A stretch of DNA of 64,000 nt. Origin: an uncultured Candidatus Melainabacteria bacterium. GTDB lineage: Bacteria; Cyanobacteriota; Vampirovibrionia; Gastranaerophilales; Gastranaerophilaceae. Positions 5,934-61,406 of the stretch are shown here, piece after piece. The position numbers were made by a program, and so were the translations under genes. The notes below the pieces were generated by a model. That model saw nothing but the letters and a program-made list of their open reading frames with translations, did not search any database and was not told the DNA's origin. The stretch spans positions 1,688-65,687 of the forward strand of contig CAKUUY010000009.1 in NCBI GenBank assembly GCA_934693235.1, in the 5' to 3' direction. Within the stretch, counting starts at the first letter, position 1; every line of letters starts with the position of its first letter.

Positions 5934-6683
5934 TTACCAAGGATAATCTTTTTCAATTTTCCAGCCATCCAACATTATTAGTGCCGCACAGCCATCTCCG
6001 GCTTCTCCAACGAGTCTTGTGTCTCTGGAGCAAGTTCTACTTTTGTTTCCAGATAGTAAATTTGTTCTTGAAAATTGAGTAAAAGGAAGAAAACAGTCAG
6101 AATATCCTCCAGGGTACAGCCCCGAGTTAAGATTTTTTACGACATTTGAACAAGCTTCATATTTAGAGGCTAGGTCAGAATTTTTCATTGTGGATTTGTT
6201 TACGAGAAAAAAATAAAATATGTCTCTTCCAGAATAGTTTGGTCCTTTAATACCATTTATATCCAAAAAGAAAACTTTTCCTGTCGCTGCATCCCAACTT
6301 ATTCCTAATATTGCTCCATCTTTTAAAATATAAAGCTTGTTATATATGATAAGCTTGGCTTTTCGGTCTATCCCAATTGGATAATCTTTATAACATTTTG
6401 TGGATCTTTCGCATTCTTCAATTGTTTCAACATATGGCAAAATGTACTTTTGCATAAAAGTTTCAGCAGGAAGAGTTGTGTCAATTTGATCAAAATCAAT
6501 ACCATTGTCTGCTTGATACATTTTAAGTGCTTGTTGTAATAAAGTATACTCTTTTTTTAATCCCTCTACTGTAACTCTTTTTTGATAATTTTGAATAATA
6601 GTTGGCAATGTCAAAGCTGCTACTATCCCAATTATTCCAAGTGTTATCAAAACTTCAGCTAAAGTGAATGCGAATTTTTTCAT
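5934..6683 (-). CDS. Prepilin-type N-terminal cleavage/methylation-domain protein (pilin/pseudopilin-like), family member PL1
   Basis: MKKFA|FTLAEVLITLGIIGIVAALTLP...; family motif LDINGIKGPNYSGRDIFYF; C-terminus ...LDGWKIEKDYPW; AGAGGGAAG SD. Confidence 0.85.
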   Translation of the reverse strand: MKKFAFTLAEVLITLGIIGIVAALTLPTIIQNYQKRVTVEGLKKEYTLLQQALKMYQADNGIDFDQIDTTLPAETFMQKYILPYVETIEECERSTKCYKDYPIGIDRKAKLIIYNKLYILKDGAILGISWDAATGKVFFLDINGIKGPNYSGRDIFYFFLVNKSTMKNSDLASKYEACSNVVKNLNSGLYPGGYSDCFLPFTQFSRTNLLSGNKSRTCSRDTRLVGEAGDGCAALIMLDGWKIEKDYPW

Positions 6684-6875
6684 CTTCCCTCTTTTGTGTG
6701 ATGTTCCACTTCTCAGTATTGCATATATTTATTTAGTTTTCAAGATGTTTATTTGTGTCACATTAAGAAATTTAGGTATATTTATTGTAACACATTATCA
6801 TTGTTAATGCAATACATCAACTTATATATGTGGTACATATTTAATAAAAAATGCAATATAATGTTTAATTATTAT

Positions 6876-7187
6876 ATGAAAAAGATGTTTGGTCAGAGAT
6901 TAAGAGAGTTGCGAGTTGCAAAAAAATTGACGCAGGAAACAGTGGCTGAATTGATAGATATTCAACCGGAGAATTACTCTCGAATTGAAAACGGTTTATC
7001 ATTTCCGAAACCAGAGAATATTGTTAAATTAAGCAAAGTGCTTGGAGTTGAAATTGCGGAATTGTTTCAATTTTCCCATCTTAATGATTATGAAAAAATA
7101 TTAGATACAATTATAGAAAAGTTGAAATCTGACAAAGATACAACAATTATTACATATAAGTTTTTGAAAAGTTTGGGAAAATTGTAA
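6876..7187 (+). CDS. XRE-family helix-turn-helix regulator, divergent from PL1
   Basis: MKKMFGQRLRELRVAKKLTQETVAELIDIQPENYSRIENG... classic Cro/C1 HTH; ATG 6876 chosen inside track ORF 6753..7187 (start uncertain). Confidence 0.8.
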   Translation: MKKMFGQRLRELRVAKKLTQETVAELIDIQPENYSRIENGLSFPKPENIVKLSKVLGVEIAELFQFSHLNDYEKILDTIIEKLKSDKDTTIITYKFLKSLGKL

Positions 7188-7193
7188 ATATTT

Positions 7194-8252
7194 TTATTGT
7201 ACAACCTTATGCAAACCGTGCGGTTTGTCGACGTTTCTGCCGAGTGCTGTCGCAATTTCTAATGCCAAAAGCTGACAAATTACCACAAGACAGAAGGATT
7301 TTACGATTTCACTTTCGCATTTTATGTCAATGTTGAATTTTGGTGTTAATTTATCGTTTGTGCACCCAATTATTGATAATGGTGGATTGTAATCCTCTGT
7401 GATTTTACTTAAATTTTTAATTGCAGTGTAGTTTAATTCGTTTACAGAAATATGTATCATTGCAGGTTTGTTGTTTAAGATTGCAACGTGTCCATGCATA
7501 AATTCGCCCAAAATATTTGAATATACATTTATATAAGACGTTTCTTTTATTTTTAATGATGCTTCTTTTGCTATTGCGTATGATATTCCGTCTGCTGTAA
7601 TCACAATATTTTTGAACTTAGCTAAAAACTTTGCCATTTCTTTGATTTCTGAATGTAGTGCGTAAGTTGTTTTAATATACTCAGGTAAAGTTTTTAATGC
7701 TTCAATATAATGAGAAATCTCAATTCCTTTGTGGGTTGCATATTTTAGTACTAGTAAAGTGCAACAAAGCATTTGCGTTGTGAGAGACTTTGTTGCTGCA
7801 ATACTTTTTTCTTCTCCGGCGCAACAATCTATTTTAAAATCTGATGCTTCCCATATTGTAGAACTTTTTTTGTTTGTTATACAAAGTGTACGCATACCAA
7901 ATTCTTTAGCTTTTCTTAAGGCTGAATTTGTGTCTGAGGTTTCACCTGATTGAGTAATAAATCCGTATAAAATATCGTTGTCGTGAGGAACAGCAGCTTT
8001 TAGAAGAAATTCACTTGAGTAAATCGCTCTTGCTTCAATTCCTGCAACATTTCCGAATAAGTCTGCAGCAAATCGTGCACAGTGATAAGAAGATCCACTT
8101 GCGACAAATATAACTTTTTGGATATCAACGGGAATATCAAACAGAATATAATTGTCATCATTAACGTGCGTTTCCAAGAGGTTTTTTAGAACATCCGCTT
8201 GTTCAAAAATTTCTGTTTCCATACTTGATGTTTTGTGTGAATTGAATAACAT
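7194..8252 (-). CDS. Double-SIS-domain sugar-phosphate isomerase/deaminase (GlmS isomerase domain without glutaminase domain)
   Basis: 352 aa; VASGSSYHCARFA and ITQSGETSDT SIS motifs; C-terminal tail resembles the GlmS tail; no N-terminal Cys-glutaminase domain. Confidence 0.7.
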   Translation of the reverse strand: MLFNSHKTSSMETEIFEQADVLKNLLETHVNDDNYILFDIPVDIQKVIFVASGSSYHCARFAADLFGNVAGIEARAIYSSEFLLKAAVPHDNDILYGFITQSGETSDTNSALRKAKEFGMRTLCITNKKSSTIWEASDFKIDCCAGEEKSIAATKSLTTQMLCCTLLVLKYATHKGIEISHYIEALKTLPEYIKTTYALHSEIKEMAKFLAKFKNIVITADGISYAIAKEASLKIKETSYINVYSNILGEFMHGHVAILNNKPAMIHISVNELNYTAIKNLSKITEDYNPPLSIIGCTNDKLTPKFNIDIKCESEIVKSFCLVVICQLLALEIATALGRNVDKPHGLHKVVQ

Positions 8253-8284
8253 ATTTAATTTATTCCTTTAGATTTTTTTTGTTG

Positions 8285-8332
8285 GTCATTCTGAGAGTTA
8301 GCGAAGAATTTCACTATGTGTCTCAGAATGAC
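8285..8332. repeat. Perfect 12-bp-stem hairpin (gtcattctgaga ... tctcagaatgac) with 24-nt loop
   Basis: Read directly; lies between gatB stop (8339) and the SIS gene start (8252). Confidence 0.85.
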
Positions 8333-8338
8333 GTAATT

Positions 8339-9781
8339 TTAACCTAAAATATCTCTCAAAATTTCGTTAACCGCTTTAGGGTTAGCTCTACCTTTAGTTT
8401 CTTTCATTACTTGACCAACGAAGAAGCCTAATAGGTTGTTTTTACCGTTTTGGTAAGCTTGAACTTCGTTTGGATGGGCATCAACGATTTTTTGAGCGAT
8501 TTCTTTGATTGCGCCAGTATCGGAAATTTGGCTTAAACCACGTTTTTCAACGATTTCAGAAGCTTTTGTGCCATCTTTCATCATGTCGATAATGATTTGT
8601 TTTCCGATATTGTTAGAAATTGTATTTTTTTCGATTAAAGAAATTAATTCAACAAGGTTCTCAGGTGTTAATTTGGTATCTGTAATTTCTTGTTTTTGTT
8701 CTTTTAAGTATGCTGTGATTTCGCCCATAATAAAGTTAACTGCGATTTTCGGAGAAGCGCCAAGTTTTAGTACTTCATCAAAGAATAGTGCCAAGCCCAT
8801 TTGTTCAACGATTACTGCTGCGTCGTATTCGCTCAAGCCTAGTGACATATAACGTTCTCGTTTCGCTTGAGGAAGCTCAGGCATTTTGTCTTTGATTTCT
8901 TGAACCCATTCTCTTGAAATTTTTAATGGCATCAAGTCAGGTTCTGGGAAGTATCTGTAATCGTGAGCATCTTCTTTGCCTCTCATAGAACGTGTTTCTC
9001 GAGAGTTGTCGTCCCAAAGTCTTGTCTCTTGAACAACTTTACCGCCTTCTTCAACGATTTCTATTTGTCTGTCGATTTCGTATTCGATTGCTCTTTGCAA
9101 AGCAGAAAAACTGTTTACGTTTTTGATTTCAGCGCGAGTTCCAAATTCATTAGAACCTTTTGGCATAATAGAAATATTTGCATCACATCTCATTGAGCCT
9201 TCTTCCAAATTGCCGTCGCAAACGCCAATGTAACGAACGATATTTCTCAATTCTTCCATATAGTTTCTTGCTTCTTCTGAAGATCTCATATCAGGCTCTG
9301 AAACGATTTCTAATAGAGGAGTTCCGGCTCTGTTCAAGTCAACTAGAGAATAAGAAGAACCTGCAAGACCGTCAGCACCTGCGTGAACAAGTTTGCCCGC
9401 ATCTTCTTCCAAGTGAGCACGTGTGATTCCAATTCTCTTTCCCTTAACGTCTAAGTAGCCGTTTACGCAGATAGGTTCATCGTATTGCGAAATTTGATAA
9501 CCTTTCGGAAGATCCGGATAAAAATATTGTTTTCTGTCGAACTTACATCTTTCCGGAATTTCACAATTTAATGCTAACCCCGTCAAGATACCCATATTGA
9601 CACATTCTTTGTTAAGAACAGGTAAAACTCCAGGCATACCTAAAGTGATAGGACTTGTTTCTGAGTTTGGCTCTTTCCCAAATTCGCAACCGTCAGGTGC
9701 GAAAATTTTTGATTTGGTTTTAAGTTGTGCGTGAACTTCTAAACCAATTACAACTTCATATTTATCTCTCAAGTCTTCCAT
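8339..9781 (-). CDS. gatB: Asp-tRNA(Asn)/Glu-tRNA(Gln) amidotransferase subunit B
   Basis: 480 aa; YEVVIGLEVHAQL..., GVLPVLN, HLEEDAGK, C-terminal YqeY-like tail. Confidence 0.93.
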   Translation of the reverse strand: MEDLRDKYEVVIGLEVHAQLKTKSKIFAPDGCEFGKEPNSETSPITLGMPGVLPVLNKECVNMGILTGLALNCEIPERCKFDRKQYFYPDLPKGYQISQYDEPICVNGYLDVKGKRIGITRAHLEEDAGKLVHAGADGLAGSSYSLVDLNRAGTPLLEIVSEPDMRSSEEARNYMEELRNIVRYIGVCDGNLEEGSMRCDANISIMPKGSNEFGTRAEIKNVNSFSALQRAIEYEIDRQIEIVEEGGKVVQETRLWDDNSRETRSMRGKEDAHDYRYFPEPDLMPLKISREWVQEIKDKMPELPQAKRERYMSLGLSEYDAAVIVEQMGLALFFDEVLKLGASPKIAVNFIMGEITAYLKEQKQEITDTKLTPENLVELISLIEKNTISNNIGKQIIIDMMKDGTKASEIVEKRGLSQISDTGAIKEIAQKIVDAHPNEVQAYQNGKNNLLGFFVGQVMKETKGRANPKAVNEILRDILG

Positions 9782-9800
9782 TATTTTCTCCTTTTTATTA

Positions 9801-9907
9801 AAGACGTTAAGTCGTCAGGTCGTTAAGACTATAAGTTCATATCGTTAAGTTTTTTAATATTGAAAAGGACTTAACGTCTTATCGTCTTAAAGTCTTAGTC
9901 ACTTAAT
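9801..9907. repeat. Inverted arrays of tandem octamers (G[AT]CGTTAA / GTCTTANN words) with a perfect 13-bp inverted repeat
   Basis: Left 9803-9850: GACGTTAA GTCGTCAG GTCGTTAA GACTATAA GTTCATAT CGTTAAGT; right 9868-9907: GACTTAAC GTCTTATC GTCTTAAA GTCTTAGT CACTTAAT; aagacgttaagtc (9801-9813) = reverse complement of 9868-9880. Confidence 0.85.
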
Positions 9908-16425: not shown

Positions 16426-16614
16426 ATGAAGTTTGATGTAATATTACATAAAGAGGACAACGGTTATTGGGCAGAAGTTCCTGCATTAAAAGGTTGTTAC
16501 ACTCAGGGAGATACTATTGAAGAGGTAAAGAATAACATTAAAGAAGCGATTACAGCTTGGTTGTCTGTTGATTTGTCTGATACAAAAGAGGAAATTATTT
16601 CAGTCGCTTTATGA
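16426..16614 (+). CDS. hicB: HicB-family antitoxin (short, N-terminal domain only)
   Basis: MKFDVILHKEDNGYWAEVPALKGCYTQGDTIEEVKNNIKEAITAWL, UPF0150/HicB fold signature; 4-nt overlap with hicA. Confidence 0.8.
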   Translation: MKFDVILHKEDNGYWAEVPALKGCYTQGDTIEEVKNNIKEAITAWLSVDLSDTKEEIISVAL

Positions 16615-16829
16615 AAAATATTTCAGGTAAAAAATTATGTAAAATTTTACAAGATAATGGGTGGCAATTGGTGAGAATTGCCGGTTCTCATCATGTTTTT
16701 GCAAAAGAGGGGGAAGATGCAAGAATTGTTGTGCCTGTGCATGCGAATAAAGAAATTAAAACCGGCCTTTTAAAAGCGATTTTAAAAACAGCCGGTCTCT
16801 TGTCATTATTTTTTACACTTGTTTCTTAA
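16611..16829 (+). CDS. hicA: HicA-family mRNA-interferase toxin
   Basis: KKLCKILQDNGWQLVRIAGSHHVFAKEG...VPVH...IKTGLLKAILKTAGL, typical HicA. Confidence 0.8.
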   Translation: MKNISGKKLCKILQDNGWQLVRIAGSHHVFAKEGEDARIVVPVHANKEIKTGLLKAILKTAGLLSLFFTLVS

Positions 16830-17623
16830 TAGTTCATTACCCAGCCTTCGTCAATTACTCTGCCGGAACAAGCCATTCCTTCTTCTGTTGTTGTATTATT
16901 ACACTTAGCCTCTCTTTGTGTTTTAAATTTTTCTATGACTGAAGTAATGTCTTTATTAGTATATTTTGCATAAGCTTCCGCATGAGCTATGCTCTTGACG
17001 CCGACAACTCTTCCATCATGAAGAATATCGAGGTAAAAAGTATCTCTTCCCCAAGTATTAGGCCCTTTACCACCATTTACATCAAGAGCAGTAATAAATC
17101 CGGTGTAGTAGCCATGATCAATTCCAAGGCTTATGTCTGCACGCATACCGTTTGCGAGAGTTACTGCGATATTTTTCCAGCCTCGGCATTTACTTTTGTC
17201 ATTCAGGTAGTACCATTTGTTTGTTTTGCCAACAAGTTTTCTGCAGGTTTCTGTGTCTGTTATTATATTGGTATTGTCGCCTAATGCCATCATATCTGGA
17301 ACAGATTCATATTTTATACCTTTAAAATATTTACTTAATTCCGGTTGGCATTTGTTTCTCCAATCTGAACTATTATACGGTGTGTCGTCTGGTAGGTCAC
17401 CACAATTCTTCCATAAAGTAGTATCTGTAATATCGTCAACTCCATCATCAGCCATGGCTTGTTTAAACCCTTGTTCAAATATAGAAACACCGACTTTTAA
17501 ACCCTCTACCCAAGTTTTCTTTTGGTAGTTTGCAATCAACATTGGCATTGTTATTGCTGCAACAACTCCAATAATCCCCAGTGTAATTAATACTTCTGCA
17601 AGTGTAAAACCTTTATTTTTCAT
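16826..17623 (-). CDS. Prepilin-type N-terminal domain protein, family member PL2
   Basis: MKNKG|FTLAEVLITLGIIGVVAAITMP...; LDVNGGKGPNTWGRDTFYL; C-terminus ...IDEGWVMNY; AAGGAAA SD before ATG 17623 (track ORF extends to 17683). Confidence 0.85.
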   Translation of the reverse strand: MKNKGFTLAEVLITLGIIGVVAAITMPMLIANYQKKTWVEGLKVGVSIFEQGFKQAMADDGVDDITDTTLWKNCGDLPDDTPYNSSDWRNKCQPELSKYFKGIKYESVPDMMALGDNTNIITDTETCRKLVGKTNKWYYLNDKSKCRGWKNIAVTLANGMRADISLGIDHGYYTGFITALDVNGGKGPNTWGRDTFYLDILHDGRVVGVKSIAHAEAYAKYTNKDITSVIEKFKTQREAKCNNTTTEEGMACSGRVIDEGWVMNY

Positions 17624-17695
17624 ATTTTTCCTTTCTATGTGATATGTTACTTTATTATTATAAGATTCAAAAAAATAAAACAATGTTTTTAATAT

Positions 17696-17743
17696 TATAG
17701 TTAAATTATAGTTGCTATAGTTAAAAAGTCAAGATTTTAGTTA
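17696..17743. promoter_or_regulatory. Direct repeats TATAGTT x3 plus TTAGTTA in the PL2/HTH divergent intergenic region (candidate operator)
   Basis: tatagtt at 17696-17702, 17707-17713, 17716-17722; tagtta at 17738-17743. Confidence 0.4.
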
Positions 17744-17765
17744 AAGCCTATTATATAATCAAAAA

Positions 17766-17972
17766 ATGAACACAAAACAACAAATTAAGCATTTATTGGT
17801 TATGAACGACATGACTATGACTGAACTATGCAGGAGAATGTCTGAAAAATTAGGGAAACCATACTCGATTTACAATATTTCAGGAAAACTAAATCGCGAT
17901 ACACTAAAATATAGTGAAGTTAAAATGCTTTATGATATTTTGGGTTATGAATTGGTTCTAAGAAAAAAATAA
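17766..17972 (+). CDS. Small HTH (Cro/C1-like) protein divergent from PL2
   Basis: 68 aa; ...MTMTELCRRMSEKLGKPYSIYNISGKLN...LKYSEVKMLYDILGYEL helix-turn-helix-like spacing; family assignment tentative. Confidence 0.55.
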   Translation: MNTKQQIKHLLVMNDMTMTELCRRMSEKLGKPYSIYNISGKLNRDTLKYSEVKMLYDILGYELVLRKK

Positions 17973-31276: not shown

Positions 31277-31552
31277 GCGTCTTGGCCTGCAGCAGTTACT
31301 GCAAGTGGTTATTCTGTTAAATTCCGATTTCACTTTAATAACTGCGCCGAATATAGTACTTGTGGTTGGGTGCAAATAGATGTAAATGGATTGAAAAAGC
31401 CAAATGTCGTAGGAAAAGATATTTATTTTGTGAACATTTATAAAAATAAACTGGTTCCATTTACTACTGCTCACAGAAATAATGCCACTTTAAAAGAGGA
31501 CTGTGAACATGGAGAGGGTGTTGGATGTTCGACAATTTATTTGCAAGAATAA
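31277..31552 (+). pseudogene. C-terminal remnant of a pilin-like family member (no leader or hydrophobic N-terminal helix)
   Basis: Frame open from 31259; ...GWVQIDVNGLKKPNVVGKDIYFVNIY...GVGCSTIYLQE carries the family motif D-x-NG-x-K-x-PN-x2-G-x-D-x-[FYW]; no ATG or SD; begins inside the gyrB terminator. Confidence 0.7.
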
Positions 31553-34384: not shown

Positions 34385-34486
34385 AAGAGGTGAGATTTTG
34401 TACGTAAAACAATAGGATGTTAAAATAAGAGTATGAACTTGAAAGAGGAGCTGAAAAACGTTGAATTTGCCATGAAAATAGCCGTC

Positions 34487-34496
34487 GGGGGGGGGG
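34487..34496. repeat. Homopolymeric G10 tract
   Basis: gtc-GGGGGGGGGG-cagt counted directly; same C-G10-CA context as the tract at 45274. Confidence 0.95.
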
Positions 34497-34701
34497 CAGT
34501 GCGTCGACACATGGACGCGAAGATAGATTATTTTGGGCTGCTGAGCAGCTGGGAAGCGAAGCAGCTAAGCGAAACTGTCATTGCGAAGCGAAAAGTTGTA
34601 AGGGGATTGTTAAAATTTTTGAGAATTCGCTGTCGCAATCCCATTCAATTAAAAGAGAGTTTGTAAAATTATTAAGTTTAACTAAACTGAAACTTTTTAT
34701 T

Positions 34702-34889
34702 TTCTCGCCCCTTGGGGAGAGAAGAAATTTCTTAGCGAATGTTGTTGAGCTTAGAAATTTCAGAGAGGGGGAAAATCAAACTAATTCAAAACAAATGTCT
34801 AAGGTATGGATGAATTGCGTACCCTCTCCCAAATTTCTAAGTTCGCCTTAGCTCACTAAGAAATTTTGCCCTCTCACAAGGAGAGAGGG
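34702..34889. repeat. Composite GC-rich repeat block: two ~55-bp imperfect inverted units built from CTCTC/GAGAG hairpins and AAATTTCT/AGAAATTT stems
   Basis: Unit 34716-34771 versus reverse complement of 34822-34875 (shared aaatttcttag...cttagaaattt); hairpins 34702-34723 and ccctctc/gagaggg 34869-34889. Confidence 0.75.
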
Positions 34890-34958
34890 TGTGACAGCGT
34901 AATTGGCAAAACTGTAAAAAAATACAAGTAAATACAATATAAGAAAGGAATATAAAAC

Positions 34959-35831
34959 ATGAATGCAAAATATCTAATCCGAAAAGACCTTAGTGCCCTA
35001 GTGCCTCAGTATCCTAGTAACTTTTATCATAAAAAATCCGCTTTCACTCTCGCAGAAGGTGCTACGCACGTAGCCCACTGGAAAGACTCACGTAAAGTAG
35101 CCTTTACATTGGCAGAGGTTTTAATCACCCTCGGCATTATTGGCATTGTTGCTGCTTTGACTTTACCTACTCTTATTCAAAACCACCAAAAAAGAGTCGC
35201 TGTAGAGGGATTGAAAAAGGAATACTCCATTTTGCAGCAGGCTTTGAAAATGTATCAGGCAGACAATAATGTTGATTTTGACGAAATAGAAACAAATCTT
35301 ACTGGAGAAAAATTTATGCAAACATATATTTTACCATACGTTCAAATAATAGGAGAGTGCAAAGGTACTGCTAAATGCTACAGAAAACCTCCTCTTGCTA
35401 TAGATAGAAAAACGAAATTAGTAATAGGTAATAAATTTTATATTTTGAAAGACGGAGCTTTTTTAGGTATAAATCTAAATAGTACATCCGGAAAAGTTTT
35501 TTATATAGATATTAATGGAGCAAAAGAACCCAATTACGCAGGCAGGGATATATTTTTCTTTTACTATGTTAATAAAAAAACTATTTTAGACGATAAAGTG
35601 CATCCGGAATGTGACAGTGGGGTGAGTTCGTTAAAATCAGGATTATATCCTGGAGCTTATTCTGCTTGTTATCTCCCTTTTACAAGATTTTCAAGAGCGC
35701 AATTGCTTGGGAGTAGTATTGACAGAAGCTGTTCGCGAAATGCGTTGAAATTAGCCGTAGTGGGAGGCGATGCATGTGCAGCATTGATTATGCTGGATGG
35801 CTGGAAGATAGAAAAGGATTACCCTTGGTAA
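34959..35831 (+). CDS. Prepilin-type N-terminal domain protein, family member PL3, with 48-residue leader containing a duplicated prepilin motif
   Basis: ...HKKSA|FTLAEGATHVAHWKDSRKVA|FTLAEVLITLGIIGIVAALTLP...; IDINGAKEPNYAGRDIFFF; C-terminus LDGWKIEKDYPW; AAAGGA SD. Confidence 0.85.
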   Translation: MNAKYLIRKDLSALVPQYPSNFYHKKSAFTLAEGATHVAHWKDSRKVAFTLAEVLITLGIIGIVAALTLPTLIQNHQKRVAVEGLKKEYSILQQALKMYQADNNVDFDEIETNLTGEKFMQTYILPYVQIIGECKGTAKCYRKPPLAIDRKTKLVIGNKFYILKDGAFLGINLNSTSGKVFYIDINGAKEPNYAGRDIFFFYYVNKKTILDDKVHPECDSGVSSLKSGLYPGAYSACYLPFTRFSRAQLLGSSIDRSCSRNALKLAVVGGDACAALIMLDGWKIEKDYPW

Positions 35832-43713: not shown

Positions 43714-45153
43714 ATGAATCCGGAATTGTATGAACGTTATTTGGCAAAGAAAGCTAAAAAATTAGGAATATCAGTAGAGGAATTAAAGGCTCAAGGAACG
43801 TCTTCGCCAGTAAAAGAAGCTGAAACAACTTCAAATCTTTCTGTTTCAGCGATGCAAACTTCTGCAAATCAGACGTTACTAGCGTCCCCTCAGCCCGTTC
43901 AAAGTTCTTTTCAAACTGCGCAACAATATTCACAACCTGGTCAATTCCAACAGCAAGTTGTTCAACCTCAGCCTGTCCAGCAGACTTTTAGTCAGGTACA
44001 ACAGCCACAGTATGTTCAACAGACAATTCAAGGGCAGTTAGAGCAACAGAATACGCAAACTTCGCCACAAACATTTCAGCCACAAACACAACAAACTGTT
44101 TCTCAACAGTTTGAACAACCTCAAACGTATAACCAATCTCCGTCTGAGCCGCCGAAGTATCAGCCTTATTCAGGTATGCAACAAGAGACTGTTAAGACAG
44201 AGGTGCCATCATATATTTTTGGACCGTCAAAAATGACGGAGCCACCAAAATATTCAAGTAGTCCGATTAGTCAACCGCTCAAACCTGAAGAACCGATTAT
44301 TAAAGACAACAGAGAAAATAAATTTGGGTTAATCGGTTATCCTTTAGGACATTCTTTGTCAAAAGTTATCCATGAAGCGGGTTTTAAGAGTTTGGGGATA
44401 AATGCAACTTATGATATCTTGGAAACACCGCCGGATACGCTTGTTAACAGAGTAAAGTTTTTGAAAGGTAACGGCTACAAAGGTTTTAATGTTACTATAC
44501 CGTTAAAATTACCGATTTCATTGTTTGTAAATGAGGTCGATAAATATGCTGATTTAGCACGTGCCGTAAATACGATTTATATTGAACCGGATAAGTCTTT
44601 AAAGGCATATAATACGGATGTTTTGGGATTTAAAAGAGCAATTCCTAAAGATATTAATTTGGCCGGTAAAAGTGTTGCTATTTTGGGAACAGGTGGTGCT
44701 GCTCACGCGGCTTGCGTAGCGTTGACAGAATGTCGAGTTAAAGAAATTGCATTTTTTACGAGAAATATTCCAAATTCGATTGATTTGATGAATTATGTGA
44801 GAAGAAAATTTCCGTCAATTGATTTTAATGTTTATCAAATTGAAAATATTCGTAATTTGGGTGATTTTGCAATGCTTGTAAACACTACTCCTATAGGGAT
44901 GCTAGGGAAAGCCGGAGATATGATGCCAGTCGAGACAAAAGCATTAGAAAGCTTAAGTCACAATGCTGTTGTATACGATGTTATTTACAATCCTAAAAAA
45001 ACAGTTCTCATAAAAGAGGCTGAAAAGTTGAGATTGAGAACGATTACAGGTTTGGATATGTTAATTTATCAGGCTGTAGCAGCTCAAGAGATTTGGTTTG
45101 GGCAAACTCCTGATTTTAAAGATATGAAGATTGCAGCGTTAGAAGCTCTGTAG
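43714..45153 (+). CDS. aroE: Shikimate dehydrogenase fused to a ~200-residue N-terminal Q/P-rich low-complexity extension
   Basis: AroE core from about 44320 (KFGLIGYPLGHSLSKVIH..., NVTIPLK, LGTGGAAHA); upstream 202 codons are an open frame rich in Q/P/T/S with AAAGGA SD at ATG 43714. Confidence 0.8.
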   Translation: MNPELYERYLAKKAKKLGISVEELKAQGTSSPVKEAETTSNLSVSAMQTSANQTLLASPQPVQSSFQTAQQYSQPGQFQQQVVQPQPVQQTFSQVQQPQYVQQTIQGQLEQQNTQTSPQTFQPQTQQTVSQQFEQPQTYNQSPSEPPKYQPYSGMQQETVKTEVPSYIFGPSKMTEPPKYSSSPISQPLKPEEPIIKDNRENKFGLIGYPLGHSLSKVIHEAGFKSLGINATYDILETPPDTLVNRVKFLKGNGYKGFNVTIPLKLPISLFVNEVDKYADLARAVNTIYIEPDKSLKAYNTDVLGFKRAIPKDINLAGKSVAILGTGGAAHAACVALTECRVKEIAFFTRNIPNSIDLMNYVRRKFPSIDFNVYQIENIRNLGDFAMLVNTTPIGMLGKAGDMMPVETKALESLSHNAVVYDVIYNPKKTVLIKEAEKLRLRTITGLDMLIYQAVAAQEIWFGQTPDFKDMKIAALEAL

Positions 45154-45182: not shown

Positions 45183-45211
45183 TTGAAAAGTAATATTAAA
45201 TATGTTAAAAT
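45183..45211 (+). promoter_or_regulatory. Sigma70-type promoter of PL4 (TTGAAA-17-TAAAAT)
   Basis: -35 at 45183-45188, 17-nt spacer, -10 at 45206-45211; GAGAGG SD at 45232-45237; ATG 45243. Confidence 0.6.
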
Positions 45212-45242: not shown

Positions 45243-46006
45243 ATGAGAAAGATTTGTTCTGAGAAAGCTTTACGGGGGGGGGGCAATCGCTAAAATCCTC
45301 TGATATCAAGCGTTTTGGGTTTACATTGGCAGAGGTTTTGATTACTTTGGGGATTATTGGAGTTGTTTCTGCTTTGACAGTTCCATCGTTGATGCAAAAT
45401 TGGCAAAAAGATGCTTACACAACTCAATTGCATAAAGTTTATACTGAGTTATCTCAAGCGGCTATAAAAGCTGCAAATGACAATAATGCGATATCTCTGG
45501 ATGAAACTGATTATGCTTGCACAAATGAACATGGTGCAGAAGAGTTTTTTAGAAAATATTTTAAAGTTGTAAAATCTTGCGGAACAGATTTGACCCCTTG
45601 TTTTGCATCAAGTTACAAAAATATAGATGGTACTGATTTCGAATTGGGAACTCCTGAATATGTTGCAACTATTGCAAGTGGTGCATCTATATCAGTATTG
45701 TATAATGATCTTGGATATGAAGAAAGTGGTTGTGGTTTGGGGGATTTAGGTCCAGCTAAATGGCATGGCTATATGCATCTTCAAGTTGATACAAACGGAG
45801 CTCAGGGACCAAACAGAGTGGGTAGAGATTTATTCTATATGGAATTATATAGTGATGGTAAAGTGGCAGATAGCTATACTGACGATGAATTGTGGCGTGC
45901 AAAATACTGTACAGAAGAAGATGAAGATGGTTATAGTTTAGGTTTTGGTTATGGTGGAGGTTGTCTATCTCGTATAATCAAAGACGGATGGCGAATGACA
46001 TATTAA
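45243..46006 (+). CDS. Prepilin-type N-terminal domain protein, family member PL4; out of frame at a G10 tract in this sequence (G11 or G8 restores the frame)
   Basis: ATG 45243 frame stops at TAA 45291 after G10; pilin frame open from 45263 (…KRFG|FTLAEVLITLGIIGVVSALTVP…); VDTNGAQGPNRVGRDLFYM; C-terminus IKDGWRMTY. The track finds only 45326..46006 from an internal TTG. Confidence 0.7.
45274..45283. repeat. Homopolymeric G10 tract inside the PL4 leader-coding region
   Basis: tac-GGGGGGGGGG-caat counted directly. Confidence 0.95.
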
Positions 46007-46060
46007 ATAAATGAAAAGGTAAAAACACGAGGAAATGAATATTTTCATTTCCTCGTTGGT

Positions 46061-46420
46061 TTAAACAGCTAACTCCAGTAACAAATCTTTGATTGTTCCG
46101 GCTAACTTATAGATTTTTTTAGCCTTGTGAGTTTTTACTTTAAATATTATCAGTAATGAATAAATTGCAACAGCAAAAATTACTTTAGATATCAATTGTT
46201 CTCGTTTTTTCTTTACAAAGGTAATCGCATTTTCAAATGAGTTTTTGAAAGTAGAAACTAAACATCTCCCATATTGCATGCATGTTTGCAATAATGGATT
46301 AAATGTTTCTACACAAGCGTTATAATAACGTACTTGTCTATCCCATTTTATCAAGTGACTGATTATAAAATGGGCAATTATTAATTCTGCTATGAAAATT
46401 ATTGCGATAAATATGTACAT
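46061..46420 (-). CDS. Hypothetical membrane protein
   Basis: 119 aa; two hydrophobic helices (YIFIAIIFIAELIIAHFII; VIFAVAIYSLLIIF). Confidence 0.5.
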   Translation of the reverse strand: MYIFIAIIFIAELIIAHFIISHLIKWDRQVRYYNACVETFNPLLQTCMQYGRCLVSTFKNSFENAITFVKKKREQLISKVIFAVAIYSLLIIFKVKTHKAKKIYKLAGTIKDLLLELAV

Positions 46421-54658: not shown

Positions 54659-54733
54659 TAAGATAAATTGCTAAGAATAATACTTTGAAAAAATTAAATA
54701 ATTCTCTTTACAAATAGTAAAATTCAACCCTTG

Positions 54734-54771: not shown

Positions 54772-54788
54772 AAATAAGGGATAGAACT

Positions 54789-56168: not shown

Positions 56169-57048
56169 TTTTGATATAAAAAAGTCAACAACAATGAAAA
56201 TTGGTGGTAAAATTGCAAGATTCTATTCCCCTGAAACAATAGATGAATTTGTGCAGATTATGCAAAAAGAGCCAAATGCTTTTGTTGCGGGTAATTTATC
56301 AAATGTTATAGTTTCGTCTTTTGGTTACGGCGGAGCGATAATTTCTACAAAAAAACTTTCTAGTATTGGTATTGATGGAAATAAAATTATTGCAGGTGCC
56401 GGAGTTCGCGGAACAAAGTTGTCAAAAATCGCACTGGAAAACGGATTGAGCGGCATGGAATTTATGATCGCTTTCCCCGGCTCAATTGGTGGTGAAGTGT
56501 TTATGAATGCTGGAGCGCATGGACAGGATGTTTCTTCAATTTTGAAATCTGCAAAAATTTATTCGCCGGAAAAAGGTTTGATTGAACTGTCAAATGAGGA
56601 ATTTGAATTTGGTTACAGAACGTCAATTTGTCAACGCCAAAATTATTCTGTTTTAGAAGCTGAGTTTGAATTGATTCCAAAATCTAAAGACGAGATTCAA
56701 GTTAAAATGGATGAAAATTTGTCATTTCGAAAAGCTAAACAGCCCGATTTAACTTTGCCTAATTGTGGAAGTACTTTCCGTAATCCTCAAGGGGATTCAG
56801 CAGGTAGATTGTTAGAAGCTGTTGGGGCAAAAGGATTAAAATTCGGAGGAATGAAAGTTTGGGAAAATCACGCAAACTTTATTGTAAATACAGGCGATGC
56901 AACATCTCTTGATGCTTTGCAGCTGATGTTTGAAATGTATAAAAGGGTAAAAGAAAAATTTAATATTGAATTAAAGCCTGAAGTAATATTTTTAGGCGAA
57001 AATAATAAAGAAGAGGTTGAAATATGCAAAATATTGTATCAAAAGTAG
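56134..57048 (+). CDS. murB: UDP-N-acetylenolpyruvoylglucosamine reductase
   Basis: TTMKIGG, GAGVRG, FPGSIGGEVFMNAGAHG, GSTFRNP motifs; true start probably GTG/TTG 56155-56158. Confidence 0.9.
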   Translation: MQEVRLSVLQTDFDIKKSTTMKIGGKIARFYSPETIDEFVQIMQKEPNAFVAGNLSNVIVSSFGYGGAIISTKKLSSIGIDGNKIIAGAGVRGTKLSKIALENGLSGMEFMIAFPGSIGGEVFMNAGAHGQDVSSILKSAKIYSPEKGLIELSNEEFEFGYRTSICQRQNYSVLEAEFELIPKSKDEIQVKMDENLSFRKAKQPDLTLPNCGSTFRNPQGDSAGRLLEAVGAKGLKFGGMKVWENHANFIVNTGDATSLDALQLMFEMYKRVKEKFNIELKPEVIFLGENNKEEVEICKILYQK

Positions 57049-57974
57049 ATAAAAATGCGAAAATTGCTGTACTTTGCGGAGGTATGTCGTCTGAAGCAGA
57101 AGTTTCAATGAGATCAGGAAAAGGTTGCTATGATGCGTTACAAAGGCTTGGTTATAAAAATTCTGAACTTGTAGTTGTGGATAAAGATATTGCCAGTAAA
57201 CTAAAAGCCGGAAATTATGATTATGCATTCAATGCTCTTCATGGAAAATATGGCGAAGATGGTTGTATTCAGGGTGTTTTGGAAATTTTACAAATCCCTT
57301 ATACCGGTTGTGGCGTTATGTCTAGTTCAGTTTGTATGAACAAAGAATATACAAAAAGAATTCTTTCAACTTGTAAAGATATTCCGTTGATTAAATCTGT
57401 TTTTGTTCAAAAAGGAGATGATGTTGTTGAAAAAACAAAAGATTTACAGTATCCATTGATTACAAAACCTGTTTGTGAGGGCTCAAGTTTTGGTATGACA
57501 AAGGTCAACACTCCAGATGAACTTGAAAGTGCATATAAAGATGCTATTAAATATAATGATGATGTTTTGATTGAAGAATATCTTGTCGGAAAAGCAGCAA
57601 CAGTTGGTGTTTTAGGTGACGGTAAAGATAGAACGGTTACAGAAATTCTAGAAATGAGACCAAAACACGAATGGTATGATTATGAATGCAAGTACACAAA
57701 AGGTATGACGGAATTTGTTCTTCCAGCTGAGATTTCAGAAGATATGACAAAAAGAGTTAAAGAAATTGCACTGAAAGCTTTTGAAGTTGCAGGTTGTTCC
57801 GGGGTTTCCAGAGTTGATTTTCATATTGTAGATGATATTCCTTATGTTTTGGAGATTAATACAAGCCCCGGTATGACAGAAACAAGCGATTTGCCGGCTC
57901 AGGCTGCGGTTATGGGAATTGATTACGATACTCTTGTACAAATAATTTTAAACAGCGTAGGTTTAAACAAATAG
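57024..57974 (+). CDS. ddl: D-alanine--D-alanine ligase
   Basis: IAVLCGGMSSEAEVS, HGKYGEDG, ATP-grasp EEYL.G, EINTSPGMT motifs. Confidence 0.93.
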   Translation: MQNIVSKVDKNAKIAVLCGGMSSEAEVSMRSGKGCYDALQRLGYKNSELVVVDKDIASKLKAGNYDYAFNALHGKYGEDGCIQGVLEILQIPYTGCGVMSSSVCMNKEYTKRILSTCKDIPLIKSVFVQKGDDVVEKTKDLQYPLITKPVCEGSSFGMTKVNTPDELESAYKDAIKYNDDVLIEEYLVGKAATVGVLGDGKDRTVTEILEMRPKHEWYDYECKYTKGMTEFVLPAEISEDMTKRVKEIALKAFEVAGCSGVSRVDFHIVDDIPYVLEINTSPGMTETSDLPAQAAVMGIDYDTLVQIILNSVGLNK

Positions 57975-58901
57975 ATGGATGAACTTAATCAAAACGAAAA
58001 TATAAATAATGGCTTTCAAGAAATTCGTGTTGAATCGGTTAATTATTCGGAAATTATTGATGAAGAGCCGATTACAGACGGGAAACATCTTGTAAAGAAA
58101 AAGCGTCGTGAACGTCTCGTACGTAAAGGGAGAATGAAACAAGAACGTTTTAGAGCCTTTGTAAGGTTTTTCTTATCAATATTTTTTATTGTCGGGTTAG
58201 GCTACGCCCTGAAAGCTCCTGGTTGGTATATGGATAAAAATGCGTTTAACTACGTCGGTGGGAATTCCGTAGAGATTATAAACAATAATATTGTTCCATC
58301 TCACAGAATTTTGGCATTATTAAAAACAAGTAACGTGCCGAATGTCCCGATTTATATGGCTAGAACCGGAGCAATAAAGAAAAATCTTATGAAACTTGCA
58401 CCTGTTGAAGATGTTTATATCAGACGATATGCTTTTCCTGCAAGAATTCAAATAATTTTGAAAGAGAGAATTCCTGCAATGTTGATTGCTCCGGATGAAA
58501 AGTCGCAACCGATTGCTTTTTTTACAACGGATGGAAAACTTATCGGTAGAGAATTTTTACCTTTAAAAAAACAATATAATACTATAAAAGTATTGTCTTA
58601 TGGGAATAAAGGTGATGATTATCATAAGTGGAACCTAGATAAAATTCATGAACTTGAAAAAATAAAAAATTATGTTGAAACGTATTCAAAAGAGCCTGTA
58701 GAGTACATTGATTTGAGAAATCCAAATGACGTTTTTGTAAAAATCAAGACAGTAAATATTCGATTAGGAAAGATTGATGAAACGGTTTACAAGCGAATTG
58801 AACGTATTCCGTCTATATTACCTCAGGTTAAAATGGTTGATTCTAAGGTTAAGTACTTGGATTTGAGTTGGGAAAAAGTTAATTATTTAAAATTAAAATA
58901 A
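57975..58901 (+). CDS. ftsQ: Cell-division protein FtsQ/DivIB (POTRA)
   Basis: Follows ddl; basic cytoplasmic tail, single TM (FFLSIFFIVGLGYAL), POTRA-like region. Confidence 0.7.
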   Translation: MDELNQNENINNGFQEIRVESVNYSEIIDEEPITDGKHLVKKKRRERLVRKGRMKQERFRAFVRFFLSIFFIVGLGYALKAPGWYMDKNAFNYVGGNSVEIINNNIVPSHRILALLKTSNVPNVPIYMARTGAIKKNLMKLAPVEDVYIRRYAFPARIQIILKERIPAMLIAPDEKSQPIAFFTTDGKLIGREFLPLKKQYNTIKVLSYGNKGDDYHKWNLDKIHELEKIKNYVETYSKEPVEYIDLRNPNDVFVKIKTVNIRLGKIDETVYKRIERIPSILPQVKMVDSKVKYLDLSWEKVNYLKLK

Positions 58902-58911
58902 GGTGGAAATT

Positions 58912-60315
58912 ATGAAAGTAGCAGTTGCACAGGTAAGATTAAAAACAGCAGATTTTAAATTTAATTTGGAAAATATTCTAAATAATATCAAATCGGATTG
59001 TGATTTGGTTGTTTTCCCGCAAGTTGACATTGAAGATTTGGGTGGGAAAGATTTGGTTTTTGATGACGGTTGTATGTCTAAACAAGCTGAATTGTACAGA
59101 GAAATTGCAAACAGAAACTTTAAACAAAATATTATCCTTGGCGATATTTTGATAAGAAATGGGGAGGTAGAAGTTTCTGATTATGGAATTTTTGATATTT
59201 GTGGTAAAAAAGTTTTTGTTTCTGATACTTTTATGGAAGATGTTGATTGCGATTTGTATATTTTGGCAAAAAACAGATATTATGCAATGAATACTTACAA
59301 AGAATTTGTTGATGAAATTCACACTCATAGCGATTTTATCTATGTAAATGCGTTAGGTATTGCGGATGAAAATGTTTTTGCAGGTGGAAGTTTTGCTAAA
59401 AATGCAAATAATGAGCTTGTTATGCAAATGCCATTGTGTAGGGAGGATGTTGATACTGTTGATTTTGCGAGAACGATTAATTTTAATGATGAAGAAGTTG
59501 AGTCTCAGGTTTATGATGTTACTACTTTTGCATTGAGTGAGTATTGCGAAAACACAGGGTTTAAAAAAGTTGTATTAGGCTTGTCTGGCGGAATTGACAG
59601 TGCATTGACCGCAGTTTTGGCAGTTGAAGCTGTCGGAAAAGATAATGTTCTAGGGGTTTTGATGCCAAGTATGTTTTCTTCTGAGGGAAGCGTTGTTGAT
59701 AGTTTAAAATTGGCTGAAAATTTAGGAATTAAAACAGTAAAAGAGCCGATTACGCCTTTATTTGATGTTTTTATGTCAGGAAGAGATAGGTTGCATGACT
59801 TGGCGGAAGAGAATTTACAAGCCAGATTAAGAGCTTTGATTTTGATGTTCTACTCTAATCGTGAAAACAGATTGTTGTTGTCTACGGGCAACAAATCTGA
59901 AAGCGCAATGGGATTTGGTACATTATATGGTGACTTGGCTGGTGGTTTTAATATGATATGTGATTTGACAAAAACAAATGTTTATAAATTGTCAAACTAT
60001 ATCAATAGAAATGGTGAAATTATTCCGCAAGAAATTATTGATAAAGCTCCGTCAGCAGAGCTTCACCCCGGACAAAAAGATCAAGATAGATTACCTGAGT
60101 ATGCGGTTTTAGACGATATTATTGAAATGTACCTTGAACAGAATCTTCCGGTTGAAGAAATTTGTAAAAAGTACGATAAATCTCTTGTTGATGAAGTTGT
60201 TAAGAAGATTTACAGAATGCAATTTAAACGTCACCAAGGGTGTTTAGGTGTAAGATTAACAGAGCGTTCTTTCTGCAACGGTGTAAATTTACCGGTTGTT
60301 CAGAGATTTTATTAA
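58912..60315 (+). CDS. nadE: NAD+ synthetase with short, probably degenerate N-terminal CN-hydrolase-like domain
   Basis: AAGGTGG SD before ATG 58912; VLGLSGGIDSALTA PP-loop; N-terminal ~200 aa reads FPQVDIED where CN-hydrolases have the catalytic Glu. Confidence 0.8.
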   Translation: MKVAVAQVRLKTADFKFNLENILNNIKSDCDLVVFPQVDIEDLGGKDLVFDDGCMSKQAELYREIANRNFKQNIILGDILIRNGEVEVSDYGIFDICGKKVFVSDTFMEDVDCDLYILAKNRYYAMNTYKEFVDEIHTHSDFIYVNALGIADENVFAGGSFAKNANNELVMQMPLCREDVDTVDFARTINFNDEEVESQVYDVTTFALSEYCENTGFKKVVLGLSGGIDSALTAVLAVEAVGKDNVLGVLMPSMFSSEGSVVDSLKLAENLGIKTVKEPITPLFDVFMSGRDRLHDLAEENLQARLRALILMFYSNRENRLLLSTGNKSESAMGFGTLYGDLAGGFNMICDLTKTNVYKLSNYINRNGEIIPQEIIDKAPSAELHPGQKDQDRLPEYAVLDDIIEMYLEQNLPVEEICKKYDKSLVDEVVKKIYRMQFKRHQGCLGVRLTERSFCNGVNLPVVQRFY

Positions 60316-60327
60316 TAGATTGATAAA

Positions 60328-60351
60328 ATGGCGGGATAGGTATCCCGCCAT
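60328..60351. terminator. Bidirectional GC-rich hairpin between convergent nadE and PL5
   Basis: atggcgggata-gg-tatcccgccat, A/T runs on both sides. Confidence 0.7.
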
Positions 60352-60362
60352 AATTATTTTAA

Positions 60363-61100
60363 TTAATAATCAAACTTAAATCCGTTTTCCAAAAAGTGCC
60401 CAAAACATCCGTCGTAAGCTCCATTATGTTCATATTTGCACATATCAAAACGGCTATCTCTTATTTCTTTTGGAGAATTCCCTAAATAGATATAACAATA
60501 TTTATTATCTTTTTTGCATTCAGGAGTAACACCTCCCTCGTCTATAGAACCATCATAAAAAATATGCATTGACCATAAATCATAGCCGATTTTGTTTGGT
60601 CCTTTTCGTCCATTAATATCAACATATAATGTTATTGGAGAACAATTAAGACTTTCAATATCTATTACGCTACCATCTGCTAATACAAATTTCCCTGTGT
60701 AATCACTTTTAGCACCAATAGCATAAGAAATTTCTCCATTTTGCATTGCATAATTATCTGCAAAACATCCATCTTCGCATACTTTTACAACTTTTAGATA
60801 TTTTTGTACAAAATTTTCACATGCTTCTTGAGCTTTTGCCTCATTTGCATCATTTTCTTCGTAACTTAAATTACTATTCCAATCATACTCCAACGGAGTA
60901 TTTCTCAAATCATCCACACCTTCATCAGCCATATATTTTTTTACAGCTTGTGACATATTGGAATAGAATTTTTGTGTAGCGACTTCAAGAGACCTTTTTT
61001 GTTGATTTTGTATCAATGTTGGTAGTGTCATCGCTGCTACGACACCGATTATCGCAAGTGTTATTAAAACTTCTGCTAAAGTAAATGCTCTATTTTTCAT
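60363..61100 (-). CDS. Prepilin-type N-terminal domain protein, family member PL5
   Basis: MKNRA|FTLAEVLITLAIIGVVAAMTLP...; VDINGRKGPNKIGYDLWSM; C-terminus LENGFKFDY; AGAGGAG SD before ATG 61100 (track ORF extends to 61130). Confidence 0.85.
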   Translation of the reverse strand: MKNRAFTLAEVLITLAIIGVVAAMTLPTLIQNQQKRSLEVATQKFYSNMSQAVKKYMADEGVDDLRNTPLEYDWNSNLSYEENDANEAKAQEACENFVQKYLKVVKVCEDGCFADNYAMQNGEISYAIGAKSDYTGKFVLADGSVIDIESLNCSPITLYVDINGRKGPNKIGYDLWSMHIFYDGSIDEGGVTPECKKDNKYCYIYLGNSPKEIRDSRFDMCKYEHNGAYDGCFGHFLENGFKFDY

Positions 61101-61147
61101 AAAATCTCCTCTTTGTGTTAATTTTGCCATATTTCATTTTGTTGGTC

Positions 61148-61201
61148 TACGTATCAATAGTACGTATATTTGCCTTTCGCTTACGTATAAACTGTACGTA
61201 T
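61148..61201. promoter_or_regulatory. Four TACGTAT boxes (two pairs) in the PL5/HTH divergent region; candidate operator array
   Basis: TACGTAT at 61148, 61161, 61182, 61195 (spacing 13-21-13); the last overlaps ATG 61200 of the HTH gene. Confidence 0.55.
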
Positions 61202-61406
61202 GAATTTCTACAAGATGTTAGGTAAAAATATTAAGACAAGGCGCAAAGAGCTTGGACTCACTCAACAGGAGCTTGCCGATAAGCTCAATATGAGCCTGAA
61301 TTTTGTAGGAAAAATCGAAGTTGCTTTTTCAAAACCGTCACTTGACACATTAATTGAAATTGCGGATGTGCTTGAAACTACTGTTTCGGACTTAACAAAA
61401 TTTTAA
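61200..61406 (+). CDS. XRE-family helix-turn-helix regulator divergent from PL5
   Basis: 68 aa; LGKNIKTRRKELGLTQQELADKLNMSLNFVGKIE...LDTLIEIADVLETTVSDL. Confidence 0.8.
   Translation: MNFYKMLGKNIKTRRKELGLTQQELADKLNMSLNFVGKIEVAFSKPSLDTLIEIADVLETTVSDLTKF

Follow-up and report, generated by a model that had tools for sequence, protein, structure and literature searches.

Dispersed DUF6613 pilin-like genes with probable poly-G phase switches or divergent helix-turn-helix partners in an uncultured gut Gastranaerophilales bacterium

We analysed a 64-kb stretch of contig CAKUUY010000009.1 from an uncultured Candidatus Melainabacteria bacterium of the order Gastranaerophilales (the window, numbered from its first letter), which carries a dispersed family of genes for prepilin-like proteins. 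Five copies are intact: PL1 (5934..6683, minus strand), a DUF6613 gene of 249 aa with the leader MKKFA^FTLAEV, the caret marking the predicted cleavage site; PL2 (16826..17623, minus strand; 265 aa, leader MKNKG^FTLAEV); PL3 (34959..35831, plus strand; 290 aa), which has a double leader; PL4 (45243..46006, plus strand), which starts at ATG 45243 and holds an internal run of ten G residues (G10); and PL5 (60363..61100, minus strand; 245 aa, leader MKNRA^FTLAEV), whose AlphaFold2 (AF2) model is pilin-like. The sixth copy, on the plus strand, is a 5'-truncated remnant without an N-terminus, now placed at 31292..31459 (earlier limits 31277-31552). With the five proteins as tblastn queries, the E-values between paralogues ranged from 1e-18 to 1e-109 and the remnant was found at 8e-5; all copies listed in a first-pass annotation of this DNA were recovered, and no others. 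Every PL gene is a single gene, alone on its own strand segment and set between housekeeping operons.

The first-pass annotation had also described three shared protein features, and all three are visible in the alignment of the five proteins. These are the N-terminus (G/A)^FTLAEVLITLGIIG, the internal motif D-x-NG-x-(K/Q)-x-PN-x2-G-x-D, in which D141, N143, G144, P148, N149, G152 and D154 are invariant, and an aromatic C-terminus. Each protein has the features of a prepilin, namely a short leader ending in G or A, F at +1, E at +5 and about 20 hydrophobic residues. The N-termini match Pfam N_methyl and TIGR02532; against the TIGR02532 cut-off of 16.3 bits, PL1 scored 19.4, PL2 27.4, PL5 26.1 and PL3 15.8, just below it, and PL4 was scanned without its first residues.

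There are just two G or C runs of at least 8 nt in the 64 kb. Both are G10 and both lie 5' of PL genes (45274-45283 and 34487-34496), in keeping with the earlier description of a frameshift tract in PL4 and of a G10 tract plus repeat block before PL3. PL4 consists, in order, of a Shine-Dalgarno (SD) sequence, ATG 45243, ten codons, the tract at 45274-45283, and FTLAE at 45320. As sequenced, the frame of the ATG meets a stop at 45291-45293, and the pilin frame runs uninterrupted from the tract as far as 46006. With G11 the two would be in frame, and the predicted product, MRKICSEKALRGGGQSLKSSDIKRFG^FTLAEV, would be a normal prepilin. As judged from this arrangement, PL4 is a predicted phase-variation switch in the OFF state. 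A promoter-like site on the plus strand (45183..45211; TTGAAA-17-TAAAAT, with TG directly before the second hexamer and 10/12 matches) precedes the gene, and a terminator-like hairpin (46027..46056) lies just after it, scored on the minus strand and facing the convergent gene 46061-46420.

The second tract belongs to an orphan leader module upstream of PL3 (34433..34666, plus strand), in which an ATG is followed by 17 codons, as against the usual 6-10 described below, and then by the G10 at 34487-34496, reading into a 77-aa open reading frame (ORF) that ends 290 nt before PL3. A hairpin/repeat block (34680..34900) lies between the orphan leader and PL3. We considered this block as a dispersed element and rejected the idea: a blastn search against all fetched loci returned an identical contig and three short partial matches. 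PL3 itself has a first A^FTLAE at 35040-35057, the palindrome GCTACGCACGTAGC at 35061-35074, and the true A^FTLAEV from 35100, that is, the duplicated cleavage motif ...KKSA^FTLAE-GATHVAHWKDSRKVA^FTLAEV. The window has a single copy of this palindrome and the loci have five, each of them close to a family gene. PL3 may represent a third state, in which inserted repeats would have separated the gene from its poly-G leader and a new start would have taken over.

PL1, PL2 and PL5 each face a small gene that the first-pass annotation had called helix-turn-helix (HTH); Pfam HTH_3 bears this out for two of them, and for the third there are weak fold matches only. The partner of PL1 (6876..7187, plus strand) is of the XRE/Cro type. 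Its listed ORF starts at TTG 6753 and matches HTH_3 over 6753-7187 (E 8.5e-15); the start is probably ATG 6876, and a 103-aa product is called on locus L003. The partner of PL5 (61200..61406, plus strand; 68 aa) is likewise XRE/Cro-type (HTH_3, E 2.6e-14). The partner of PL2 (17766..17972, plus strand, divergent; 68 aa) gave no Pfam or PDB sequence match. Its AF2 model, with a predicted local distance difference test score (pLDDT) of 84, is a four-helix bundle, and the best Foldseek matches are mostly Cro/CI-type HTH proteins (HipB, TP901-1 CI, the ComR DNA-binding domain, HigA2), with template modelling (TM) scores of 0.57-0.65 and weak E-values of 0.4-3. Eight relatives of this protein are encoded in the loci, 7/8 of them divergently beside family genes.

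Repeats had been noted in all three spacers and are present, at lengths of 13, 10 and 20 nt. The PL1/HTH spacer (6684..6875) has 13-nt repeats TTGT(G/A)(T/A)CACATTA at 6753 and 6785, the PL2/partner spacer (17624..17765) has 10-nt TATAGTTAAA repeats at 17696 and 17716, and 61148..61201 holds two 20-nt operator-like copies of TACGTATnnnnnGTACGTAT at 61148 and 61182, the second overlapping the start codon of the PL5 partner. The operator-like repeats differ among the three pairs and are clearest in the PL5 pair; the sequence elements of the three spacers are TACGTATn5GTACGTAT, TATAGTTAAA and TTGTnnCACATTA. The HTH proteins presumably regulate the neighbouring family genes, as local repressor or activator.

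A census of family members and their flanks was made on the window plus 79 loci from GTDB species genomes (L006-L084), which together comprise 651 kb and 107 family genes (set 1), and was replicated in 80 metagenome loci (set 2), a tract being a G or C run of at least 8 nt. In set 1 an upstream tract was found in 51 of the 107 genes and a divergent small HTH gene in 23, and no gene had both (Fisher p 3e-10). Set 2 gave 51 genes with a tract, 14 with an HTH gene and 0 with both. The first-pass annotation had held that its proposal of a multi-locus, independently switchable repertoire would fail if the HTH and poly-G associations were absent at other copies; the opposite was found, and their recurrence across the 107 genes lends the proposal support. 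From the side of the HTH genes the picture is similar: an iterated phmmer search seeded with the three window partners detected 30 small HTH ORFs in about 650 kb, 24 of which adjoin a family gene, 23 divergently and within 300 nt.

The tracts are strongly concentrated at the family. Runs of at least 8 nt number 56 in the 651 kb, compared with about 1 expected from composition (about 0.03 for runs of at least 10), and 51/56 fall in the 650 nt that precede a family gene; these zones make up 9.4% of the sequence, which gives a 98-fold enrichment (p ~1e-46). All 51 tracts of set 2 are upstream of family genes (51/51), and the two sets together assign 102/107 tracts to them. The lengths of G/C runs in set 1 are bimodal (11 runs of 6 nt, 3 of 7, 3 of 8, 4 of 9, 41 of 10, 4 of 11, 3 of 12 and 1 of 14). 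A/T runs in the same sequences, by contrast, fall off smoothly, from 136 of 8 nt to 15 of 9, 3 of 10 and 1 of 11. In set 2 the lengths again peak at 10 (37/51).

A typical module consists of an AGGAG-type SD, an ATG, usually 6-10 codons, and G10 or C10 on the coding strand, both kinds of tract being in use. After the tract there is often TAA or TAG and then GCTCC, and (G/A)^FTLAEV follows 5-150 nt on. Reading frames were scored in the 36 modules of set 1 whose tract lies no more than 200 nt away: 4 were already in frame, 26 would be restored by +1 and 6 by -1; the corresponding figures in set 2 are 2 ON, 25 and 8. ON modules (4/36) are rarer than the one-third expected by chance (p 0.004), and +1 predominates among the out-of-frame modules (26/32, p 5e-4). 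In 35/36 modules no stop interrupts the pilin frame on the way from the tract to FTLAE. The type of module appears to follow the phylogeny of the proteins only loosely: PL1, which has an HTH partner, and PL3, which has a relic tract, are 61% identical in the globular part, and several further close pairs also differ in module class.

Since most copies are out of frame, and since the window holds a remnant and an orphaned leader, one might regard the frameshifted copies, PL4 included, as pseudogenes of a family in loss, and the G runs as mere mutational hot spots. We consider this very improbable. The frameshift always falls at the tract, the SD, ATG, leader and cleavage site are all conserved, and the out-of-frame copies that we inspected lack scattered stops; moreover, ON alleles occur at the same loci, and hot spots would have to account for the 98-fold enrichment. 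Because the pilin frame is open in 35/36 modules, most of them one base off, the tract modules are better read as poised switches, not decayed genes.

Programmed recoding is a more serious alternative. The modules would then be fixed slippery sites, G10 or C10, on which RNA polymerase adds one base or the ribosome shifts by -1, each copy would have a constitutive, low level of expression, and the tract in the DNA would be no switch. It would account for the excess of modules that need exactly +1 (26/32), for the dominance of length 10 (41/56 and again 37/51 tracts) and for the finding of G10 in PL4 on every contig examined. We nevertheless think it unlikely. Tract lengths range from 8 to 14 and differ between samples at the same locus, where full-length in-frame alleles exist, and the interchangeability of G and C tracts fits a property of the DNA better than the decoding of Gly versus Pro. 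No conserved stimulatory RNA structure was found 3' of the tract. Pairing of the SD with the conserved GCTCC after the tract was tried and rejected, as RNAalifold on 11 modules gave -2 kcal/mol without covariation. Even so, switching at the DNA level could be accompanied by some leaky expression, through slippage of the polymerase or the ribosome on G10.

Evidence for variation in tract length comes from homologues found with the predicted ON form of PL4, which have leaders of the type M-x7-9-GGG(G)-..-(G/A)^FTLAEV. In locus L087 the tract is G11 and in frame. In L088 (601-660) and L089 (144-200) it is interrupted by an A, GGGGGAGGGGG, yet still spans 11 nt and keeps the frame; this allele appears to be locked ON. 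For this gene, the cluster at 90% identity includes full-length ON forms on 11 contigs and N-truncated OFF calls on 80. The locus (L087-L099) lies between an isochorismatase-family gene and ribF in all contigs but one, and the tract varies among G9, G10 and G11 within near-identical flanks. One allele has G11 (ON) or G10 (OFF); the other, which lacks the C after the tract, has G9 (ON), G10 or G11 (both OFF). At the locus between secA and ychF (L100-L106), G10 (OFF) was found in five contexts and G11 (ON) in one contig. Tract length thus differs between samples, with matching ON and OFF frames, at two family loci other than PL4. We infer that frequent reversible switching takes place within clones.

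The assemblies are short-read throughout and the peak at 10 is suspiciously sharp, as would be expected if Illumina assembly mis-called the length of homopolymers and the genes were really in frame. This explanation is scarcely credible to us, however, given that one and the same locus has G9, G10 and G11 in different samples and in contigs from several assembly sources (k119/k141-, NODE- and Logan-named), that lengths of 8-14 were recovered, and that the tracts are locus-specific across many independent studies.

The products of these genes are assigned by precomputed matches to an uncharacterised Pfam family, DUF6613 (PF20318). Matches to PF20318.4, not marked as weak, cover PL1, PL3, PL5 and most homologues; in our own hmmscan with PF20318.3, PL1 matched at E 0.021 (15.2 bits, with a cut-off of 24.3) and the other PL proteins did not match. 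A search with PL5 gave more than 6900 homologues (E<1e-5), of which nearly all carry PF20318, and a search with just the globular domain gave 518 representative clusters at 50% identity (E<=1e-3). Among the best 80 relatives, named records are nearly all metagenome-assembled genomes (MAGs) of Gastranaerophilales/Melainabacteria, the complete MEL.A1 genome included, and in the best 80 of the at least 521 GTDB relatives several genomes hold 3-7 loci each. The AF2 model of PL5 (pLDDT 83, predicted TM score 0.79) has a helix at residues 8-59, a helix at 80-101, five strands within 104-180 and C-terminal helices; the predicted fold is that of a pilin, a long N-terminal helix plus a beta sheet. The C-terminal domains, for which the first-pass annotation had proposed profile and structure searches, have no solved homologue of the globular part in Foldseek and PDB profile searches, the latter matching pilins, GspG and Geobacter PilA in the N-terminal helix alone.

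Pilin N-termini, the name 'general secretion pathway protein G' given to one member by one source, and the occasional adjacency of T2SSE genes would suit an ordinary set of minor pilins or pseudopilins that shares its regulation with an assembly operon at another locus and to which HTH genes and G runs are incidental. We give this hardly any weight. Scores against the equivalog models for GspG, ComG and PilA fall far short of the cut-offs, and the matches cover the N-terminal helix only, within about the first 75 residues of the mature protein. Membership in GspG (TIGR01710; 15.6-30.6 bits, cut-off 88.85) and in ComG (ComGE; 18-39 bits, cut-off 49) was accordingly rejected. In addition, the tract and HTH associations are strong, mutually exclusive and replicated.

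The first-pass annotation had concluded that this is not a structural pilus operon. That holds for gene organisation: as it had stated, the annotated ORFs of the 64 kb, by Pfam and precomputed annotations, include no pilus or type II secretion system (T2SS) assembly genes, and the PL genes stand singly amid housekeeping operons. As a statement about function it may not hold, and fibre assembly by type IV machinery encoded elsewhere may still occur: genes for T2SSE (PilT/PilB-type) ATPases lie directly downstream of family genes in L059 (4884-5960, minus strand) and L070 (7201-8109, minus strand), members of the same order, and pilB/C/D/T have been reported in the termite relative Ca. Gastranaerophilus termiticola (PMC5877343). 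We infer that the products are surface-exposed or secreted and exported by type IV machinery.

Taken together, the evidence makes it likely, in our judgement, that the DUF6613 genes form a dispersed pilin-like repertoire controlled copy by copy, through either slipped-strand phase variation or a divergent HTH gene. The products carry the class III signal (G/A)^FTLAEV ahead of a long hydrophobic helix, and have a globular part with a predicted beta sheet and a pair of Cys residues towards the C-terminus; a prepilin peptidase would cleave them, and type IV pilus- or T2SS-type machinery encoded elsewhere would handle them. Each copy would be a stand-alone transcription unit, most having one of two mutually exclusive 5' modules. 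In the first, slipped-strand mispairing would alter the run by one base and so move the ATG into or out of the pilin frame. We favour this mechanism because the run may be of either G or C, its length spans 8 to 14, and alleles in the ON state were found. The second, found at PL1, PL2 and PL5, would pair the family gene with a divergent Cro/CI-type HTH gene that has operator-like repeats of its own. Overall, cells would vary in the pilin-like proteins that they make. Because the commonest length, G10, is OFF in most copies, ON is one step off, and ON is rarer than chance, the frames suggest a repertoire silent by default, with rare stochastic activation.

Several observations weigh against this interpretation. 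The PL4 tract is G10 in all three samples compared, its OFF gene call is present on 8 contigs, and an exact look-up in the protein collection found none of its ON products (G8, G11 and G14 forms). All tract data are consensus sequences of short-read assemblies, and the GTDB and metagenome sets may share assemblies. The sharp peak at 10 (41/56), with +1 mostly needed, also fits a programmed recoding site. A Foldseek search of the whole PL5 model against the PDB returned nothing below E=1. Finally, some tract-bearing genes also have a tract-independent ATG nearer FTLAE, so that OFF may not mean silent.

Many family genes have a double leader of the type (leader)-G^FTLAE-GATHVA..-(G/A)^FTLAEV, in which the GATHVA part is the palindrome GGTGCTACGCACGTAGCC; the stretch of PL3 at 35040-35102 is of this kind (FTLAE-GATHVA-x9-FTLAEV). 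At the secA-ychF locus an extra 63 nt (about 440-520 in L100-L104) lies between perfect 19-nt direct repeats, and is present or absent when L100 is compared with L106. This unit contains an ATG (MLNSQRRFG^FTLAEV) that gene callers take when the tract is OFF, and the G11 allele is without it. The double leader may provide another start that does not depend on the tract, may be a scar left by recombination when 5' modules are exchanged, or may be a small mobile element. Where tract and FTLAE are about 100 nt apart, modules have a second ATG about 30 nt before FTLAE (L007, minus strand, about 124-230; L034, about 3960-4010; L050, about 3960-4013). It stands 6 nt after an extended -10-like TGnTATA(A/C)T, within a GTGAT...ATCAC inverted repeat, and may be a leaderless start; in PL4 (45299-45320) and L018 it has decayed to ATC or ATA.

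A further idea, which we put forward tentatively and think somewhat doubtful, is that the 5' control modules are exchangeable among dozens of pilin-like paralogues that make up a default-OFF, one-step-to-ON repertoire. The joint at which modules are swapped or excised would be the 5' end that codes for FTLAE, which is nearly identical among copies and often has the palindrome GGTGCTACGCACGTAGCC after it; the items swapped would be poly-G leaders, HTH-controlled promoters and tract-independent starts. Exchange of this kind would account for the double-leader scars (PL3), the 63-nt polymorphism, orphan leaders, and unlike modules on close paralogues (PL1 versus PL3). If it takes place, the pilus or surface repertoire of a gut commensal would vary at two layers, through switching at simple sequence repeats (SSRs) and through re-wiring of 5' modules.

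The other ORFs of the window with a Pfam match are nusG, rplK, rplA, pheS, gatB, gltX, gyrB, adk, map, tmk, lptC, dprA, topA, aroE, murT, pdxJ, lspA, leuS, murC, murB, ddl, ftsQ, nadE, rpmI and rplT; the Pfam-matched neighbours are all housekeeping genes, and a few ORFs are without a match. An Rfam scan of the window found one tRNA only and no known RNA element near the PL genes. Exact matches of the window proteins come from human-gut metagenome contigs, Hadza samples among them. A HicB/HicA toxin-antitoxin pair (16426-16829, plus strand) is convergent with PL2, the hicA stop overlapping the PL2 stop by 4 nt. Upstream of PL4, aroE (shikimate dehydrogenase) has an N-terminal extension of about 200 aa at 43714-44340, Q/P-rich and of low complexity.

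Database and assembly records of the family have peculiarities of their own. Many protein entries (among them P0012, P0055, P0111 and P0374) carry N-terminal extensions of 50-170 aa with translations of the HAELVSAS- or SLRANAKQSRE-type, which are likely annotation artefacts of gene callers reading through upstream repeat elements. A G10 or C10 without a recognisable family gene downstream occurs in L028 (2212-2221), L065 (1301-1310), L066 (7759-7768) and L068 (183-192). In about 14 of the 79 GTDB loci the family gene starts less than 500 nt from a contig end (L008, L010, L017, L020, L026, L028, L033, L040, L052, L064, L067, L075, L081 and L082), and contig L075 has G14 at its very start. The conserved 5' end of family genes, or their tract, seems to be where MAG assemblies break.

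The type of switch is itself already known, from pilC and from the poly-G genes of Campylobacter and Helicobacter. Neisseria pilC reportedly phase-varies through a poly-G tract in the region coding for its signal peptide, a finding that is said to go back to Jonsson et al. in 1991. As in the present family, the G run lies just after the start, in the leader of a pilus-related gene, and slippage by one base toggles translation; PilC, however, is a tip/assembly protein with 1-2 copies, whereas here dozens of pilin-like paralogues in another phylum have tracts of their own. The vlp genes of M. hyorhinis encode a family of variable surface lipoproteins, each gene with a poly-A tract in its promoter. 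They too are a multigene set of surface proteins with a private homopolymer switch per gene, giving combinatorial ON/OFF mosaics, but their tract is in the promoter and their products are lipoproteins, whereas the present family has its tracts within the coding leader, with HTH regulators in another subset of genes.

Expanded families of prepilin-like proteins are found in Planctomycetes (DUF1559), in Verrucomicrobia/Lentisphaerae and in Elusimicrobium minutum. Like DUF6613, they comprise tens of dispersed genes, away from assembly operons, whose products combine the N-terminus of a type IV prepilin with a globular domain particular to the lineage; that domain differs from the one in DUF6613. 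Control of single genes by SSRs or HTH regulators has, as far as we know, not been reported for them. The family shares with type IVa pilins and GspG the G/A^F-x-x-x-E cleavage site, a hydrophobic alpha1, the predicted helix-plus-sheet layout and a C-terminal Cys pair; unlike these, its members are larger (about 220-260 aa) and have a globular domain without a detectable solved homologue.

The closest parallel in scale is the 'phasome' of Campylobacter and Helicobacter, AT-rich genomes with many poly-G/C loci, hypermutable runs of about 8-13 and intragenic frame switching (PMC6321876, PMC2823697). G/C runs, many loci per genome and frame switching within genes are common to both. Phasomes, however, are functionally mixed, whereas 102/107 tracts in the DNA sampled here serve one family, with a sharp modal length of 10 and most OFF by one. 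Our full-text literature search found nothing that links Melainabacteria or Gastranaerophilales to phase variation, homopolymeric tracts or DUF6613, and the founding genome papers of the lineage do not mention pili or phase variation. What appears to be new is the combination: one uncharacterised pilin-like family that holds nearly all the sampled G/C tracts, with an alternative HTH module, in an uncultured gut lineage.

The Gastranaerophilales are widespread and uncultured in the human and animal gut. On our reading, a likely role can be proposed for DUF6613, a Pfam family hitherto uncharacterised. The same reading also explains the N-terminally truncated or repeat-extended annotations of family genes in MAGs, and probably why some contigs end at the 5' ends of these genes. 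Expression of the large pilin-like repertoire is predicted to be stochastic and to vary clonally, and spectra of tract length per locus would reveal which pilin-like genes are ON in a given host. Variable expression of these proteins could help the bacterium to escape pressure from phages through their receptors, from immunoglobulin A (IgA), or on adhesins.

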